Below, piece by piece: positions 662-36,780 of a stretch of DNA of 64,000 bases. Position 1 is the stretch's first letter. Each line of letters opens with the position of its first letter. The notes under the pieces are model-generated. The model did not search any database. It saw only the letters and a program-made list of their open reading frames with translations, and was not told the origin of the DNA. The position numbers were made by a program, and so were the translations under genes. The stretch comes from an uncultured Acidimicrobiia bacterium (GTDB taxonomy: Bacteria; Actinomycetota; Acidimicrobiia; Spongiisociales; UBA5794): positions 133,611-197,610 of the forward strand of contig CAVQOG010000002.1 of assembly GCA_963714375.1 (NCBI GenBank). Direction: 5' to 3'.

Positions 662-2044
662 GTGAACGTTCTCTTGATTTCTACATATGAGCTAGGCAGG
701 CAACCGGTGCATGTCGCAAGTCCTGCGGCTGCACTTGAGGCGTCGGGCCATACGGCCAAAGCCCTCGACCTTGCCGTGCAACCATGGGATCTCGCACTCG
801 TCGACTGGGCGGATGCCGTTGCTATCTCGACTCCGATGCACACCGCAATGCGTCTTGCGATCGCTGCGTGTCGAAGGATCAAAGCCCATAGACCGGAACT
901 GCCTGTCGCTGCGTATGGTCTCTATGCCGGCATGATGAACGATGAAGAATCGAAGCTCTTCGACAGGGCGATTGTTGGCGAGTACGAGACCACCCTGGTG
1001 CAGTGGGTGGCAGGGAAACGCTCGGTTGAACCGGTCACGATCCACCTCACCCGAGGTGGATTCCAGACCCCGGACCGAAGCATGCTCCCCTCCCTTGACA
1101 ACTACGCACGTCTGTCGATCAACGGCGAAGAAAGGCTCGTTGGGGCCGTCGAGGCATCGCACGGATGCGTCCATCTCTGTCGTCACTGTCCCATTCCCGC
1201 TGTCTACAACGGCGCGCTGAGGATTGTCGATGTGGAAACGGTGCTGGCCGACATCGATCAACAGATCGCCGCGGGTGCCCGACACATCACGTTCGGGGAT
1301 CCAGACTTCCTGAACGGCCCTGCCCATTCCCTTCGAATCATTCGGGCGATGCATGAGCGACACCCCACGGTCACGTTTGACTGCACCGTCAAGGTGGAGC
1401 ACATTCTCTCTTACGCGGATGTTTGGGACGAGTTCGCGTCTGCAGGTTGTCTGTTCGTGGTGTCGGCGTTCGAGTCGATGAACGACAACGTGCTCATGAA
1501 CCTCGACAAGGGACATACAGCCGAAGACGCCGCACGAGCCGTTCATCTCCTCCGAGATGCAGGCATCGATATCCGGCCTTCGTGGCTCCCGTTCACCCCG
1601 TGGACGACGCGCGAGGACATCGATGCGATGTTCCGATTCATCAGCAGTCACGATCTGATCGAGTCGACCGATCCTGTCCAAATGGGGATACGTCTCCTGA
1701 TTCCGGCTGGATCACTCATGCTTGATATCGAAGGCATCCATCGCTTTCTCGGCGAATATGACAGCGAAGCCCTGTCCCATGCGTGGACAAGTGACGATCC
1801 CGCCATGGACGCGTTGGCAGGAACACTCATGGACATTGCTGAGGAAGCATCGAGCGGTCGTCTCTCGACAATCGACACATTCATCCGACAGTGGATGACT
1901 GTTACCGATGGCACCGACCTCGAAGCGCCAGTCGTGGCCATCGACCAGGGAGCGACGCTTGGCCGACCCAAGTTGACCGAATCGTGGTTCTGCTGAGCTG
2001 AGCCAACCGCGAGCCAGTTGGGCTCGCTCGATTCCCCAGATTGA
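662..2044 (+). CDS. CUAEP/CCAEP-tail radical SAM (seleno)protein; Sec at UGA 1994-1996
   Basis: CVHLCRHC radical SAM CxxxCxxC motif; N-terminal B12-binding-like region; GTG start at 662 (MNVLLISTYELGRQP); reading through TGA gives ...ESWFC-U-AEPTASQLGSLDSPD* ending at TGA 2042-2044. Confidence 0.88.
2000..2025 (+). promoter_or_regulatory. Candidate bacterial SECIS hairpin downstream of the Sec UGA
   Basis: GAGCCAAC (2000-2007) pairs with GTTGGGCTC (2017-2025) with one bulged G, starting 4 nt after the UGA. Confidence 0.5.
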
Positions 2045-30756: not shown

Positions 30757-30933
30757 TGACACACGTAGGACGACGGGAAGTCGACGGATACGAACCGATT
30801 GTCGATCCGAGTCGACCCTCATCGTGTAGGTCCAGCGGCGTCCATGGCCACCCCCGTTGTGCACAGGTCACATGGAGACCCGGTGCTTGACGTGAGGCTA
30901 CTCATCCATCAGACCACCGACAAGAGGCTCCCA

Positions 30934-31251
30934 CAAGGCTGTCATTGGCAAACCGAAAACTTGGGCGGAGCGGAGGCCAATCTGGGCGGAGTGTCACTCC
31001 ATCGCTACGCGGGTGACTCGCTGTCGTCCGACACCTGCGACGGACAGCTGTTCTTCATCTCCGGTGACGAGGAGGAGATCTCCGGGCTTGGCGAGTATGC
31101 GATTTGGGGGTCTGGCGGCACGCTCGTTGTGTGCAGGTCAGACGTCGTCATGAAGATCAGCATGGATTGGAACCCGAGATCCACCTTCGAACAGAACCGC
31201 GACTCGGCGATAGCGATGGCGCAGTCCGTTCTCGCCCAGATGGACGGTTGA
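30934..31251 (+). pseudogene. 5'-truncated paralog of lipoprotein 36190..36780
   Basis: QGCHW...RYAG...TCDGQ.FF..GDEEEI.GLG..A.WGS.G.LVVCRSDVVMKI...RDSAIAMA.SV.AQMDG* matches the C-terminal half; no signal peptide or lipobox upstream. Confidence 0.78.
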
Positions 31252-33093: not shown

Positions 33094-33407
33094 GTGAGTA
33101 TCGAGATCGATCGAAAACGCCGGTTCGAGATGGTCGCTGCCGAGATTTCGGATCCCGTGCAGCGGTACCTGCGTCGCCGCGCCACTGCGGAGGACGCTGA
33201 CGACGCGCACTCTGAAACGCTCCTGACCACACCACCGTGATCGTGACAGCTCCCGCCGGATTCGAGGCACTCATCGGAAGCGTTCCGTTCGTCGAGGGAG
33301 GAGACTTTCTCATTTCAGCAATCGACGGTGTTGTGAACTATTGCGGCATGAGCGGTGAGGCCACATCTGAGCTGCAGACACTGTACGACGCGGCGTTCGC
33401 CGGATAA
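33094..33407 (+). pseudogene. Deletion scar: ECF sigma N-terminus joined out of frame to the C-terminus of another gene
   Basis: 33094-33240 encodes ..RRFEMVAAEISDPVQRYLRRRATAEDADDAHSETLL (sigma region-2-like) then stops; a shifted frame 33231-33407 encodes TTVIVTAPAGFEALIGSVPFVEGGDFLISAIDGVVNYCGMSGEATSELQTLYDAAFAG*. Confidence 0.7.
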
Positions 33408-33530
33408 GGACACCACACGATCTTCAACACGGAAGATGGCCCCGGCGAGAGCTGGGGCCATCTTTTCGTGTGATCGTCGGGGCTCAGGTTGGCAGAGAAG
33501 CCGATCTCATGATCGGTTCTGAATTTTGAT

Positions 33531-33560
33531 GTCACCCGTAGCATCGTTTCGTCCGTCTGT
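33531..33560 (+). promoter_or_regulatory. ECF sigma promoter GTCACCC-N16-CGTCTGT (copy 1)
   Basis: Same boxes and spacing as the copy at 34642-34671; 36 nt upstream of ATG 33597. Confidence 0.75.
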
Positions 33561-33596
33561 CATGATGAAGCCGCACAACGAGAACGGAGACCTTCG

Positions 33597-33992
33597 ATGG
33601 CATGGTGGACACTTGAGCTGATCACGACGGGCGTGCTACTCGTGATCGTCCTCGTTCTCGGACCGCTGATCAAGCGCTACGGGAAGAGCTACGCGGCCGA
33701 CGTCTTCGCCGCCAACCCGCGAACCGGGAAGAGCTACCTCGTTCTGATGGACGTGGCCTACTACCTGATCTTCGGTGCATACATCCTTCTGACCATTCAG
33801 TTTGATCCGCCTCCGGACTGGGATGAAACCGTCAACGCTGCCCAGCTCCAAAGCGAAACCGTTCGCATCGCAGGACTCCTGATCCTGATGGGTCTTCTCC
33901 ATGGTCTCAATGTCATAACCCTCCCCATCATCGGCAGATTGCTGTCGCTGAACCGACGCCTCGATGACGACATCGAGTCCAACAGCGCTTAG
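33597..33992 (+). CDS. Small 3-TM membrane protein, paralog of the anti-sigma membrane domain
   Basis: LGPLIKRYGKSYAADVF...TG...L.DVAYYLIF...RIAGLL..MGLLHGLN...LP.IG aligns with 35209..35946. Confidence 0.8.
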   Translation: MAWWTLELITTGVLLVIVLVLGPLIKRYGKSYAADVFAANPRTGKSYLVLMDVAYYLIFGAYILLTIQFDPPPDWDETVNAAQLQSETVRIAGLLILMGLLHGLNVITLPIIGRLLSLNRRLDDDIESNSA

Positions 33993-34087
33993 GCGCACCC
34001 CAACCCCACCTCCGTGCAACCGATCCGACAAACCCGTCGGAACCACTGACCTGCCACGTGCAGGCACGATGAGAAGGAAGCACATAT

Positions 34088-34588
34088 ATGGAAACAGCCA
34101 AACGGATGATCCGGCTGCGGGTCGCATTGGTCGCGGTCATCGCGATGTTTGCGGTCGTGCTGGTTGCGAACCAGGCAGATGCGAAAGGTGTCGACGTCAC
34201 AACCGGACGCTTTGTGACGACGGCCGCCGGTACGGAAAAGGGATACGACATCCAGGGTTTCGCCATCATGCTCCGAGTTCCGAAGGGCGACGACGGACGC
34301 ACCTACGTCAGCGTCTTCGTACGAGGTCTCGATGCGAACACGACATACAAAGCGCATGTCCACAACGCTCCCTGTTCTACGGGCGGCGGCGGCGGGCACT
34401 ACCAGCACGCGGTTGGCGGGGTGGTTGACGCAGTCAACGAAATATGGCCGACAATCACGACCCAACGGCGTGGTTTGGGCTGGGGCTCGGCGTCACACGG
34501 TCACTTGGCACGACCCGATGCACAGTCGATCGTCATCCATTGGCCTGCTGATTCCTCCGTCAGGCTCGCTTGCGCAGATCTGGGCTGA
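34088..34588 (+). CDS. Exported Cu/Zn superoxide dismutase-fold protein
   Basis: Signal peptide (QADA); GL....Y.AHVHNAPC...GGGHY...NEIW...SIVIH...RLACADL. Confidence 0.75.
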   Translation: METAKRMIRLRVALVAVIAMFAVVLVANQADAKGVDVTTGRFVTTAAGTEKGYDIQGFAIMLRVPKGDDGRTYVSVFVRGLDANTTYKAHVHNAPCSTGGGGGHYQHAVGGVVDAVNEIWPTITTQRRGLGWGSASHGHLARPDAQSIVIHWPADSSVRLACADLG

Positions 34589-34599
34589 GGTTGCACGAA

Positions 34600-34632
34600 G
34601 GAGAGAGGGAGGCATTGCGCCTTCCTCTCTCC
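34600..34632 (+). terminator. Strong hairpin after the SOD-like gene
   Basis: GGAGAGAGGGAGGC-attgc-GCCTTCCTCTCTCC. Confidence 0.7.
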
Positions 34633-34641
34633 GGGGTTCCG

Positions 34642-34671
34642 GTCACCCAAACGCCAGGTTCACTCGTCTGT
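34642..34671 (+). promoter_or_regulatory. ECF sigma promoter GTCACCC-N16-CGTCTGT (copy 2; autoregulatory, probably leaderless)
   Basis: The -10 box ends 7 nt before ATG 34679 of the sigma gene. Confidence 0.75.
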
Positions 34672-34678
34672 AGCATCG

Positions 34679-35212
34679 ATGGAACGTGAAGTCGCTGTAC
34701 CAATGACGGTCGAGATCGATCGGGATGCGCTCGTCGCATCCCTTTATGACCGCGAGGGGGTGGCACTGGTCCGACTCGCCCGATTGTTCACAGACGATCG
34801 TGCGGCCGCCGAGGACGTCGTTCAAGAAGCGTTCATCCGACTGCATCGGAACGCCCATCGGATCGAGGATCAGGGGAAGGCGGCGGCGTATATGCGATCA
34901 ATCGTTCTCAACCTTGCCCGCGACCACAACCGCAGAGGTCTCATGTCGCTCCGACATCAGGAATCGCTCGTACCCGGAGGCGAACTCCCATCACCCGAGG
35001 ACCGCATCGTGAGAACAGAGGACCAGGTCGAAGTCGTCGAGGCGTTACGTGACCTGCCCGGTCGGCAGCGCGACTGTCTCGTCCTGCGGTTCTATCTCGA
35101 TTTGACCGAGACCGAGATTGCCGACACGATCGGGATCTCCAAGAACTCAGTGAAGACACACTGCAAGCGAGGCATGGCTGCCCTGAAACGTCGTCTGGGG
35201 GAAATGCAATGA
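34679..35212 (+). CDS. ECF RNA polymerase sigma factor, Streptomyces SigE-like family
   Basis: LVRLARL...AAEDVVQEAF...AYMRSIVLNLAR; LPGRQRDCLVLRFYLDLTETEIADTIGIS..SVKTH..RG. Confidence 0.9.
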   Translation: MEREVAVPMTVEIDRDALVASLYDREGVALVRLARLFTDDRAAAEDVVQEAFIRLHRNAHRIEDQGKAAAYMRSIVLNLARDHNRRGLMSLRHQESLVPGGELPSPEDRIVRTEDQVEVVEALRDLPGRQRDCLVLRFYLDLTETEIADTIGISKNSVKTHCKRGMAALKRRLGEMQ

Positions 35213-35946
35213 CCATCGAACAGCGATTGCGCGACGCCATGCAGGGAACCGACGGCTACGAACCCGCACCGGACCTGTTTGCCAAGGTACAACGCTCGAT
35301 TCACGAGGACCGACTGCACCGTCGCCGAGTGCGTCGAATCGTCCTCGGATGCGTCGCGTTCCTGGTACTCATCGCTGGTTGGCTGGCCATATGGTGGGAC
35401 CCGCAACCGGATGCGTCTCCGCTGCCATGGTGGTCGGTCGTGGCGGTCATCGTGGTTCTACAGATGGCATTGGTGCTGATCCTCGGACCTTCGATCAGAC
35501 GGTTCGGCAAGGCATATGCCGCCGACATCTTCCGAACGTCCCCTGGTACAGGGAACCGATTCCTGTCGCTGCTCGATGCTGCGTACTACCTCGTGTTCAC
35601 GGGAATGGTGCTTCTGGCGGTTCCGTTCGCTGAGCATTCTGCCTGGACGGGTTCGAGAGGGCTGTCTGTGCTCATCGAAGAAGGTGCTCTTCGAATCGGA
35701 GTGCTGCTGCTCGCGATGGGCATGCTGCATGCACTCACGATCTTCGCACTCCCGATGGTCGGACTCATATTTGCTGCGAATCGACATCGAACCGTTGTGC
35801 GCCAAACCAAGAACGAGTGGGCTCCCGAGGTACGACGTGCACACCGCACGGTGAACGTCGTACTCATCCTTGTCGCCGCGTTCGTCGCGATCAACGTCAT
35901 CGCACCGCTGCTCCTGTCCCTCCTCGGATTCTTCTTCAACGCGTGA
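35209..35946 (+). CDS. Putative membrane anti-sigma factor
   Basis: 4-nt overlap with the sigma gene; IEQRLRDAM...P.PDL..KV...RRRVRR cytoplasmic segment followed by about 5 TM helices. Confidence 0.72.
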   Translation: MTIEQRLRDAMQGTDGYEPAPDLFAKVQRSIHEDRLHRRRVRRIVLGCVAFLVLIAGWLAIWWDPQPDASPLPWWSVVAVIVVLQMALVLILGPSIRRFGKAYAADIFRTSPGTGNRFLSLLDAAYYLVFTGMVLLAVPFAEHSAWTGSRGLSVLIEEGALRIGVLLLAMGMLHALTIFALPMVGLIFAANRHRTVVRQTKNEWAPEVRRAHRTVNVVLILVAAFVAINVIAPLLLSLLGFFFNA

Positions 35947-36189
35947 CGCGTGTCACCCGGAACGTCGATATGAATCGGAAACGTGTGACCGTACGACTCC
36001 CCGAGATGTCATCTCAGGGGCGAGAGGCGCAGCAGCGTCCCCGAAGAAAACGGGCCGCGTCGTGCTCTCCGTCACGCGTCCTGGCTCGACAGATATTGGA
36101 AGGATGCTTACCATCAAACCGTTATGGATGGTTCCAGGTGCGTGGGACTCGTGTCCACGCTGCGACGGATTTCCCGGAGGAGCAATCAG

Positions 36190-36780
36190 ATGGGCAGCAA
36201 CGGATCTCGGATCAAATATGTGGCAACATTCCTCGGCCTGACGTTGCTTCTGGTGGCGTGCAGCGGTTCCGATGGTGATGGTACGACGGCAACAACGGCT
36301 GCCGCGAGCGTCGACACGACGGTCGGTGGTGCACCGACGACCGGTAGCGATGACACGCTTCCCCCCGATTTCGGATCGTCCGATGACCCACTGGCTGCCG
36401 TACCGGGTTGCGATCTGCTGACCGACGATGAAATTGCCACCGTTACGGGTGCGCCAGTCACGAGCAGCGAGGAGATCGGAGTTCAAGGCTGTCATTGGTT
36501 CACCGAAAACCAGGGTGAGGTGCGACTGAATCGATACGCGGGCGGCAACCTGGCGTCCGGCACATGCGATGGACAGATGTTCTTCATGGACGGTGACGAG
36601 GAGGAGATCCAAGGGCTTGGCGACCAGGCCACTTGGGGATCCACCGGCATCCTCGTGGTATGCAGGTCCGACGTGGTCATGAAGATCGATGTCGATTACA
36701 GCCCCAACACCACCATTGAGGAGGACCGCGATTCGGCCATCGCGATGGCTCGGTCCGTCTTCGCCCAGATGGATGGCTGA
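36190..36780 (+). CDS. DUF3558-like lipoprotein
   Basis: GGAGGAG RBS; LLLVAC lipobox; PGCDLLTDDEIATVTG...GCHW...IQGLGDQA. Confidence 0.72.
   Translation: MGSNGSRIKYVATFLGLTLLLVACSGSDGDGTTATTAAASVDTTVGGAPTTGSDDTLPPDFGSSDDPLAAVPGCDLLTDDEIATVTGAPVTSSEEIGVQGCHWFTENQGEVRLNRYAGGNLASGTCDGQMFFMDGDEEEIQGLGDQATWGSTGILVVCRSDVVMKIDVDYSPNTTIEEDRDSAIAMARSVFAQMDG

Follow-up and report, generated by a model that had tools for sequence, protein, structure and literature searches.

Why does a locus for an extracytoplasmic function (ECF) sigma factor encode, besides a putative anti-sigma factor, a free-standing copy of the membrane domain of that same protein? The question is raised by a 64,000-nucleotide (nt) stretch of DNA from an uncultured Acidimicrobiia bacterium (assembly GCA_963714375.1, contig CAVQOG010000002.1, positions 133,611 to 197,610 of the forward strand), hereafter the window. 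It encodes on one strand a membrane protein of 131 amino acids (aa), an exported protein resembling superoxide dismutase (SOD), an ECF sigma factor and a 245-aa putative anti-sigma factor. Our answer is tentative, with a probability of about 0.45, and derives from sequence comparison: the cytoplasmic head of the 245-aa protein would hold the sigma factor until a cue perceived at the three-helix membrane domain causes its release, and the free copy of this domain would serve the sensor as an accessory or feedback subunit. The features on which this answer draws are as follows.

33530..33560, + strand: P1, predicted ECF-type promoter TGTCACCC-N16-CGTCTGT, 36 nt upstream of the ATG of the small gene
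33597..33992, + strand: free 131-aa three-helix membrane protein, paralog of the membrane domain in the putative anti-sigma factor
34088..34588, + strand: exported 166-aa protein with a predicted Cu,Zn-SOD fold; signal peptide ...ADA/KG, read by eye
34600..34632, + strand: GC-rich hairpin with a 14-bp stem and no U-tail, lying after the SOD-like gene and before P2
34642..34671, + strand: P2, second exact copy of the predicted promoter, 7 nt upstream of the sigma ATG (34679)
34679..35212, + strand: 177-aa ECF sigma factor, limited to regions sigma-2 and sigma-4 (Pfam, TIGR02983)
35209..35946, + strand: putative anti-sigma factor, 245 aa, whose start overlaps the sigma stop (ATGA)

The 131-aa product was aligned to residues 72-193 of the 245-aa product with 39% identity over 122 residues (E 4e-31), which confirmed the homology that the initial annotation of this DNA had proposed. 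The conserved histidine named there was also found in both proteins: H102 of the small protein was invariant in 49 of 49 aligned domains, and its counterpart H174 in all 67 rows of the anti-sigma alignment. The 131-aa protein matched no family in Pfam or NCBIfam, and a search of 1.84 billion proteins returned a domain family of 534 representatives at E <= 0.001. Longer family members (14 scanned, 7 read) revealed no new domain partner. Frameshifts or chimeric gene prediction in metagenomes seem to account for them; in one, sigma region 2 precedes the domain, and in another, sigma region 4.

The model of the small protein was a confident three-helix bundle (predicted local distance difference test score, pLDDT, 90.9) with helices at residues 3-36, 41-66 and 81-121. 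Hydropathy and the positive-inside rule placed the N-terminus outside and both the loop at residues 23-47 (mean 5.7 Lys plus Arg) and the C-terminus in the cytoplasm, and the same rule placed this loop in the cytoplasm in free and fused proteins alike. Foldseek against the PDB gave no match to the domain at E <= 0.001, and the hits in the ESM Atlas were all unnamed membrane-protein clusters. A wide VIA-align search returned only generic or designed helical bundles (best Z 10.6, with ~13 needed for such bundles). The conserved polar residues lay on the cytoplasmic side or in the inner-leaflet half of the model. Residues 39-46 (33711-33734), at the start of helix 2, read A-N-P-R-T-G-K-S and fit the Walker-A pattern [AG]-x4-G-K-[ST]; across 54 free copies P41-K45 were invariant, and N40 and S46 nearly so. 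A phosphate/lipid site or a Cu(I) site in this domain is offered as an idea only.

The 177-aa protein was assigned to the ECF sigma factors (group 4), with sigma-2 and sigma-4 present and neither sigma-3 nor sigma-1. The supporting matches were Sigma70_r2 (2.7e-13, residues 22-86), Sigma70_r4_2 (1.4e-12, residues 118-169) and Sigma70_ECF (22.8 bits against a cut-off of 21.1), all in Pfam, and the SigE family TIGR02983, where the score was only just above the cut-off (142.1 against 141.55 bits).

The sequence GTCACCC-N16-CGTCTGT was found exactly at 33531-33560 and at 34642-34671, both on the plus strand. That these two copies share identical boxes and spacing had been noted before; in the complete set of contigs from this organism (2,477,017 bases, 9 contigs, 99.55% complete) they proved to be the sole matches at up to one mismatch, with one match for the reversed-pattern control. 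At up to two mismatches the window held 3 matches against 0.98 expected, which is not significant alone, and the loose form TCACC-N15-18-CGTC was at chance in the window (10 observed, 6.85 expected). Because the looser forms are at chance there, the case for the motif is carried by its two exact occurrences and by how well relatives conserve it. A relaxed scan of the organism's own genome revealed no other convincing site. The next-best candidate lay on the minus strand of contig C3, near 322529, and belonged to another ECF pair, consisting of a second ECF sigma gene and an anti-sigma-like gene at +1, and preceded by the same -35 box (TGTCACCCG), a different -10 box (CGTCTTA) and a longer spacer. 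Related sigma factors with partly overlapping promoter specificity may therefore coexist in this genome. The CAAC-type -35 element that the initial annotation had named did not hold up, and the -35 box TGTCACCC resembles that of ECF41 sigma factors.

Conservation was assessed in the best 80 loci found with the small protein, of which 58 were two-copy (free and fused), 20 single-copy (fused) and 2 unclear. These loci are almost all from Acidimicrobiia metagenome bins and were drawn from the same genome collection as the genome samples below, so the counts are non-independent and kin share ancestry. A strict search (TCACC, 17 free bases, CGTCTG) returned 110 distinct instances, strand-specific and near gene starts. 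Positions left free by the search were conserved as well, namely T at -2 (92/110), G at -1 (110/110), C at +5 (109/110) and T at +28 (110/110), giving the extended consensus TGTCACCC[G/A]-N15-CGTCTGT. Genes behind the motif were the free copy, sigma, the SOD-like gene and further genes for envelope proteins. In the whole genomes of five relatives, 13 exact copies were detected against none for the reversed control, and 10 of the 13 lay in the sigma locus. The conservation in orthologous loci that had been predicted was thus found, and the comparison supports the motif as the promoter of the adjacent sigma factor, as read from conservation and position. With the motif upstream of the sigma gene or its operon across orthologous loci, the locus has the form of an autoregulated ECF module, and we read the sigma regulon as very small and centred on the locus.

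In two-copy loci, the -10 box ended 27-88 nt upstream of the free-copy start in 42 of 58; in a further nine the motif stood 503-1226 nt upstream of the free copy, with another gene between. The great majority (52/58) had no second strict motif ahead of sigma. A second motif between free copy and sigma occurred in six loci (L038-L043), which are the window's nearest relatives and all carry the SOD-like gene; a second motif before sigma was also seen in L035 of genome G019, with different downstream sequence, and in L023 and L033 P2 was followed by AGCATCGATG. The gap from free copy to sigma was 34-242 nt in loci without the SOD-like gene. Since there is one promoter only, before the free copy, and sigma follows 34-242 nt on, the two genes are likely co-transcribed in most relatives, and the two-promoter layout of the window would be a local split of an ancestral operon. 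In single-copy loci, the motif stood 82-109 nt upstream of sigma in 11 of 20, with a spacer longer by one base. The proposal that the sigma factor induces the paralog therefore stands in part. The motif ahead of the paralog is conserved like sigma's own promoter, but because most relatives show a single promoter, before the paralog, the latter seems to open an operon that is likely autoregulated, and not to be a separately induced target.

To the distribution of the module, two genome samples were applied. Among 61 genomes (the organism's own and 60 relatives), the domain was present in 16, and in 15 of these a free copy lay upstream of a second copy on the same strand. When the class Acidimicrobiia was sampled evenly (401 genomes), the domain was present in 64, of which 29 had two strong adjacent copies, 34 had one (fused) and 1 had a distant homolog only; without the unpublished genome G287 the two-copy share was 28/63. 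All 29 two-copy genomes had their copies on one contig and strand, 1.1-1.9 kb apart. The window's order contributed 27 two-copy and 13 single-copy genomes, and other orders 2 and 21, respectively. All ten single-copy loci inspected from other orders showed sigma followed by the fused protein, whose membrane domain was 54-69% identical to the free copy of the window. Among the related loci, the fused protein directly followed sigma in 78 of 80 (2 unclear). The co-occurrence of a stand-alone paralog with sigma and the fused protein in other genomes, a prediction of the initial annotation, was therefore observed in 29 of 64 domain-bearing class genomes. These comparisons indicate that the module is conserved in Acidimicrobiia. 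Eight of the contigs (L047, L054, L057, L069, L078, L081, L082 and L090) are labelled Acidobacteria, Kiloniellaceae, Boseongicola, Gammaproteobacteria or Bifidobacteriaceae, yet in the tree the sigma genes of these contigs branch within the Acidimicrobiia; the odd labels are probably binning or labelling errors in public metagenome-assembled genomes.

The 166-aa protein encoded between the free copy and sigma was examined by family, fold and active site. No Pfam or NCBIfam family was matched, and Sod_Cu (PF00080) gave no hit at E <= 0.1, while a canonical Sod_Cu relative in L107 scored 3.6e-24 with the same Pfam scan. A PDB sequence search likewise returned chance-level matches only. The AlphaFold2 model (pLDDT 88.9) matched Cu,Zn-SODs in Foldseek with probability 1.00, a best E of 5e-6 and template-modelling scores of 0.56-0.61, with 171 chains at E <= 0.001, which supports the exported Cu/Zn-SOD-fold gene that had been proposed here. 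H90, H92, C96, H104, E118, W120, H151 and C162 were invariant in 29 of 29 homologs. A profile alignment to canonical SodC placed H90/H92, H104 and H151 on the copper histidines, matching the SodC motifs H-V-H, G-G-H and V-I-L-H, and C96 on the disulfide cysteine. R159-L-A-C162 resembles the catalytic arginine motif, the R/K before A-C being read by eye from the alignment. The predicted protein would thus combine a Greek-key barrel with four copper histidines, a cysteine pair and the arginine. No conserved histidine was found between H104 and E118 in the 29 sequences, and the stretch aligned to H-G-S-H...D-L-P of the SodC zinc region reads G-G-V-V...N-E-I-W-P; E118 and W120 had no mappable counterpart in SodC. 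Because the copper histidines are kept and the zinc histidines absent, the modelled protein looks copper-only, and we regard it as probably an exported, divergent, copper-only SOD-like protein.

The candidate regulon was surveyed through the first open reading frames (ORFs) behind motif instances, a choice that is error-prone in high-GC DNA and left a few ORFs clearly off-frame. The 130 first ORFs comprised 32 free copies, 22 sigma genes, 11 SOD-like genes, 1 fused gene and 64 others. The last group included ATP-binding cassette (ABC)-transporter ATPases (12), Calx-beta/fn3 secreted proteins (6), cytochrome b (5), several unannotated multi-pass families, one cytochrome P450, small secreted His-rich proteins, and a two-member cluster whose tested member was a canonical Sod_Cu protein. 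The His-rich family consists of secreted proteins of ~100 aa with a cysteine pair (…HDHYIVTPNG.CHQVA…HGG.HRFH.NVH…), found at L108:4772-5092 and L131 ~1369-1650 (minus strand); the L108 member matched no Pfam family. One of the three motif copies outside the sigma locus precedes a member of this family, beside a regulator that by eye looks ArsR-type. The metal or oxidative stress theme of the initial annotation gained modest support from the SOD-like, Sod_Cu, His-rich, cytochrome b and ABC-ATPase genes behind the motif, but it is only suggestive.

Taken as a mechanism, the shared motif would be a promoter read by the sigma factor of the locus, and the 245-aa protein would keep this sigma at the membrane through its N-terminal head. 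The fused membrane domain would sense a cue at its inner-leaflet or cytoplasmic face, where the invariant R27, D52, Y55 and H102 cluster, as do the A-x4-G-K-S loop, M51 and M98 of the free copy. The free copy, having arisen by duplication of a self-associating sensor, would be made together with the sigma/anti-sigma pair or in excess over it, would join the fused domain as an auxiliary part of the sensor, and would set the threshold of the sigma response or feed back on it, in a relation like that of YhdK to YhdL or of YxlD to YxlC. The stress would likely be copper or superoxide-type envelope stress.

Several points weigh against this account. The pairing of the free copy with the fused domain is something that we purely infer; a complex prediction for residues 40-245 of the 245-aa protein (67 rows) with the free copy (54 rows), run without controls, gave a score of 0.00 and a mark of 0.32, which speaks neither for nor against binding. 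The 245-aa protein contains no known anti-sigma domain in Pfam or NCBIfam, nor do the 67 members of its family. Seven of the 58 two-copy loci lacked a strict motif upstream of the free copy, four of them searched over <800 nt only and one (L064) carrying a CGTCCG variant of the -10 box. Where P2 is absent, the stable hairpins that separate sigma from the SOD-like gene raise the question of how sigma is transcribed: L044-L070 have SOD-like-to-sigma spacers that fold at -31 to -78 kcal/mol over 62-125 nt even without a second promoter, perhaps forming a partial terminator that sets the ratio of the free copy to the sigma/anti-sigma pair. Of 16 related loci examined, one had zero spacer, and among the 15 whose spacer could be measured, 13 had folds 3' of the SOD-like gene about as stable as that of the window. 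The copper-ligand mapping rests on an hhalign match of 14.7% probability and so depends on the fold match for support. Few genes make up the regulon, mostly encoding membrane proteins without known function, so the copper/superoxide theme is only suggestive. Finally, the sigma tree does not settle duplication versus loss, the outgroup branch being too long, and a free copy that acts as an effector in its own right would explain its strong conservation just as well.

That effector role is the likeliest of the alternatives, though itself rather unlikely. Here the free protein would be a protective membrane protein produced by the regulon, which itself binds or deals with the agent of the stress, for instance a metal ion or lipid-linked molecule, outside any signalling complex, and the fused copy would only use the same fold to sense the same agent. 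The unequal evolution of the two copies, which also counts among the evidence for the accessory-sensor reading, bears on it. A tree of 130 domains resolved three groups: free (59), two-copy fused (51, support 100) and single-copy fused (20, support 93). Mean identity was 0.70 among free copies, 0.81 among single-copy fused domains and 0.43 among two-copy fused domains; free copies were 0.64 identical to single-copy fused domains and 0.38 identical to their own fused neighbours. The N-domain of the fused protein was equally conserved in two-copy and single-copy classes (0.58 and 0.60), with the membrane domain at 0.43 in two-copy versus 0.79 in single-copy loci. Ratios of nonsynonymous to synonymous substitution (dN/dS), computed against five close relatives with dS near saturation except versus L038, ranged from 0.05-0.09 in the free copy and 0.08-0.11 in sigma (three of five relatives) to 0.11-0.29 in the fused membrane domain, so that the free copy is as constrained as sigma, which favours the effector reading. 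The A-x4-G-K-S loop, M51 and M98 were kept in free and single-copy fused forms, and the fused copy of two-copy genomes had lost the N-P-R-T-G-K-S loop, M51, N105 and R114, still keeping P23, R27, D52, A54, Y55, G99, H102 and P110. Since identities and dN/dS are unequal, the free copy of two-copy genomes seems to have kept the ancestral-type sequence and the fused copy to be relaxed or shifted. Judging from the shared motif, the free copy may also be co-expressed with envelope proteins such as the SOD-like protein, which again suits an effector. However, a pure effector would be expected alone somewhere, and in the sampled genomes a strong domain match never occurred away from the sigma locus; in single-copy genomes the domain was always part of the sigma-linked protein (10/10 loci from other orders, 20/80 related loci). 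The way one-copy and two-copy genomes are spread over the orders points to a fused ancestor that was duplicated. An attempt to root the sigma tree with the paralogous sigma of the same genome failed (outgroup branch length 10), with the single-copy loci forming one clade (99).

A further reading, which we consider unlikely, goes beyond the accessory subunit: the free protein, derived from a homo-oligomeric sensor, would act at the membrane as a mimic of the anti-sigma factor, pairing with its fused counterpart and changing the ease of sigma release, and a conserved inner-leaflet pocket (R27, D52, Y55 and H102, with M51, M98 and the A-x4-G-K-S loop in the free copy) would bind Cu(I) or a phosphorylated lipid. 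If true, this would constitute a sigma-driven feedback loop, a membrane-level counterpart of partner switching, and a new family of intramembrane ECF sensors.

The accessory-sensor reading also presupposes that the 245-aa protein restrains sigma. It is quite improbable that this protein is no anti-sigma factor at all and that both membrane proteins are co-transcribed members of the regulon, with sigma controlled transcriptionally or by another factor. The protein consists of a cytoplasmic head (residues 1-43, 10 Lys plus Arg), a first transmembrane helix (TM0), the three-helix domain (72-193) and an extra C-terminal transmembrane helix. In favour of this alternative, the head is only ~43 residues long, no zf-HC2, RskA or H-x3-C-x2-C match was found in the family and no Cys/His motif in residues 1-43, the N-domain profile met no anti-sigma chain in the PDB (best E 0.015, an unrelated mannosidase), and a PDB sequence search with the whole protein gave chance-level matches only. 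Weak, sub-threshold DUF3040 matches in 23 of the 67 members were all that the domain searches returned. On the other side, the gene stands at +1 with a stop/start overlap and directly follows sigma in nearly all related loci, and in two-copy genomes no part of the protein is better conserved than its head (0.58 vs 0.43). Most anti-sigma factors in the ECF classification match no Pfam domain either and, in its cited sections, were called by the same criteria (PMC7826278). The label given to this protein at the outset thus holds as to its +1 position, ATGA overlap and conserved N-domain of ~40 aa, but lacks a known anti-sigma domain, and we keep it as a putative anti-sigma factor.

It is highly improbable that the motif is read by another regulator or a paralogous ECF sigma, its linkage to the locus sigma being merely positional, since, although the second ECF pair of this genome shares the -35 box, the complete motif is nearly confined to the sigma locus in six genomes (2/2 in the own genome, 10/13 in five relatives) and accompanies the sigma gene throughout the class, in one architecture as in the other, and two boxes at fixed spacing are the form of an ECF promoter, as in ECF41 (TGTCACA / CGTC; PMC7826278).

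Further features of the locus concern its borders and transcript ends.

33499..33518, + strand: terminator-like hairpin with a T-run (consensus scan), closing the upstream unit
35950..35959, + strand: relic -35 box GTGTCACCCG without a matching -10, directly 3' of the putative anti-sigma stop

Because the hairpin at 33499..33518 closes the upstream unit, P1 stands alone; a GGAG ribosome-binding site lies between P1 and the ATG (33597) of the small gene. The distance of 7 nt between P2 and the sigma ATG implies a sigma mRNA that would be leaderless. The strong hairpin reported after the SOD-fold gene was recovered as the 14-bp stem at 34600-34632, and the 71-nt stretch around it folds at -38.6 kcal/mol (z = -3.7). 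It is likely a terminator, an attenuator or an RNA end-protector. At the place of the relic box, the closest relative carries a complete third promoter ahead of a 211-aa multi-pass membrane protein, a gene that the window lacks; the box at 35950-35959 looks like a decayed promoter remaining after gene loss. Just upstream of the module, at 33130-33240, a 36-codon ORF read by eye resembles the start of ECF sigma region 2 (VQRYLRRRATAEDADDA) and then meets a stop; it may be a sigma-gene remnant. The module is flanked on both sides by DUF3558-type exported or lipoprotein paralogs (30799-31251 and 36124-36780), whose C-terminal parts are 71% identical over 82 residues.

Compared with characterised systems, the module combines familiar parts in a different arrangement. 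In Bacillus subtilis, the sigma-M system includes the small membrane protein YhdK, which is not known to be a paralog of the membrane part of the anti-sigma factor YhdL and is encoded downstream of the gene for YhdL, a single-pass protein. The small protein of the present module differs in duplicating the three-helix domain of the 245-aa protein and in being usually the first gene. The two systems are alike in that an ECF operon contains an anti-sigma factor and a small multi-pass protein, YhdK being the partner of YhdL in a complex that restrains sigma (PMC6827917). Two putative anti-sigma factors in one group, and multi-pass anti-sigma factors in others, are also described in the ECF classification (PMC7826278).

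The PhyR-NepR-EcfG system is cytoplasmic, and after phosphorylation a sigma-like mimic competes there in the sigma/anti-sigma system. Here, by contrast, the membrane domain of the anti-sigma factor is copied and not sigma, and competition would be a hypothesis. The neighbourhood of sigma-Y, YxlC and YxlD in B. subtilis includes ABC-transporter genes, a likeness to the ABC-transporter genes behind the motif in 12 related loci here. Sigma-Y (ECF31) needs its +1 anti-sigma factor YxlC and a second small protein, YxlD, presumably in one complex (PMC7826278). The sigma group, gene order and proteins differ from those of the window, and paralogy of YxlC and YxlD is not reported in the cited sections (PMC7826278).

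ECF41 and ECF209 were considered as group assignments and rejected. ECF41 promoters have a spacing of N16, and ECF41 sigma factors carry a fused SnoaL-like C-terminal extension and no anti-sigma factor, whereas the window sigma ends after region 4, at residue 177, with a membrane protein at +1. The promoter alone is similar, with nearly the same -35 core and the same CGTC -10 (TGTCACA / CGTC; PMC7826278; PMC3426412), and the architecture rules membership out. ECF209 is likewise actinobacterial and has at +1 a putative anti-sigma factor with four transmembrane helices and no Pfam domain (PMC7826278); its promoter as given there (CCGTGAACC / CCGACTGT, against TGTCACCC / CGTCTGT) rules out membership, a judgement made on promoters and not on sigma sequences. 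No free paralog is mentioned in the cited description of ECF209, and neither a free paralog of an anti-sigma membrane domain nor this motif and architecture was found in the cited sections of the ECF classification (PMC7826278). A full-text literature search returned no paper on ECF regulation in Acidimicrobiia or on this architecture.

Copper-only SODs are known in bacteria and fungi (PMC12217663). The window protein is like them, including the fungal SOD5 type, in its exported SOD fold with copper histidines, disulfide and arginine and without the zinc histidines, and differs in being too divergent for Pfam Sod_Cu, with E118 and W120 unmapped.

Signal sensing by multi-pass anti-sigma factors is largely obscure, and most predicted ones are without a characterised domain, as far as the cited sections go (PMC7826278). 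In the Acidimicrobiia module, the presumed sensor domain stands apart from the sigma tether in roughly half of the genomes that carry it and is left fused in the others, and the two copies diverge unequally. This natural split offers a ready-made genetic dissection of the domain alone, fused and interacting. The analysis defines an unannotated membrane-domain family, a precise predicted promoter of a compact regulon in Acidimicrobiia, and a divergent, probably copper-only SOD-like exported protein. The arrangement may show how sigma/anti-sigma switches are tuned.

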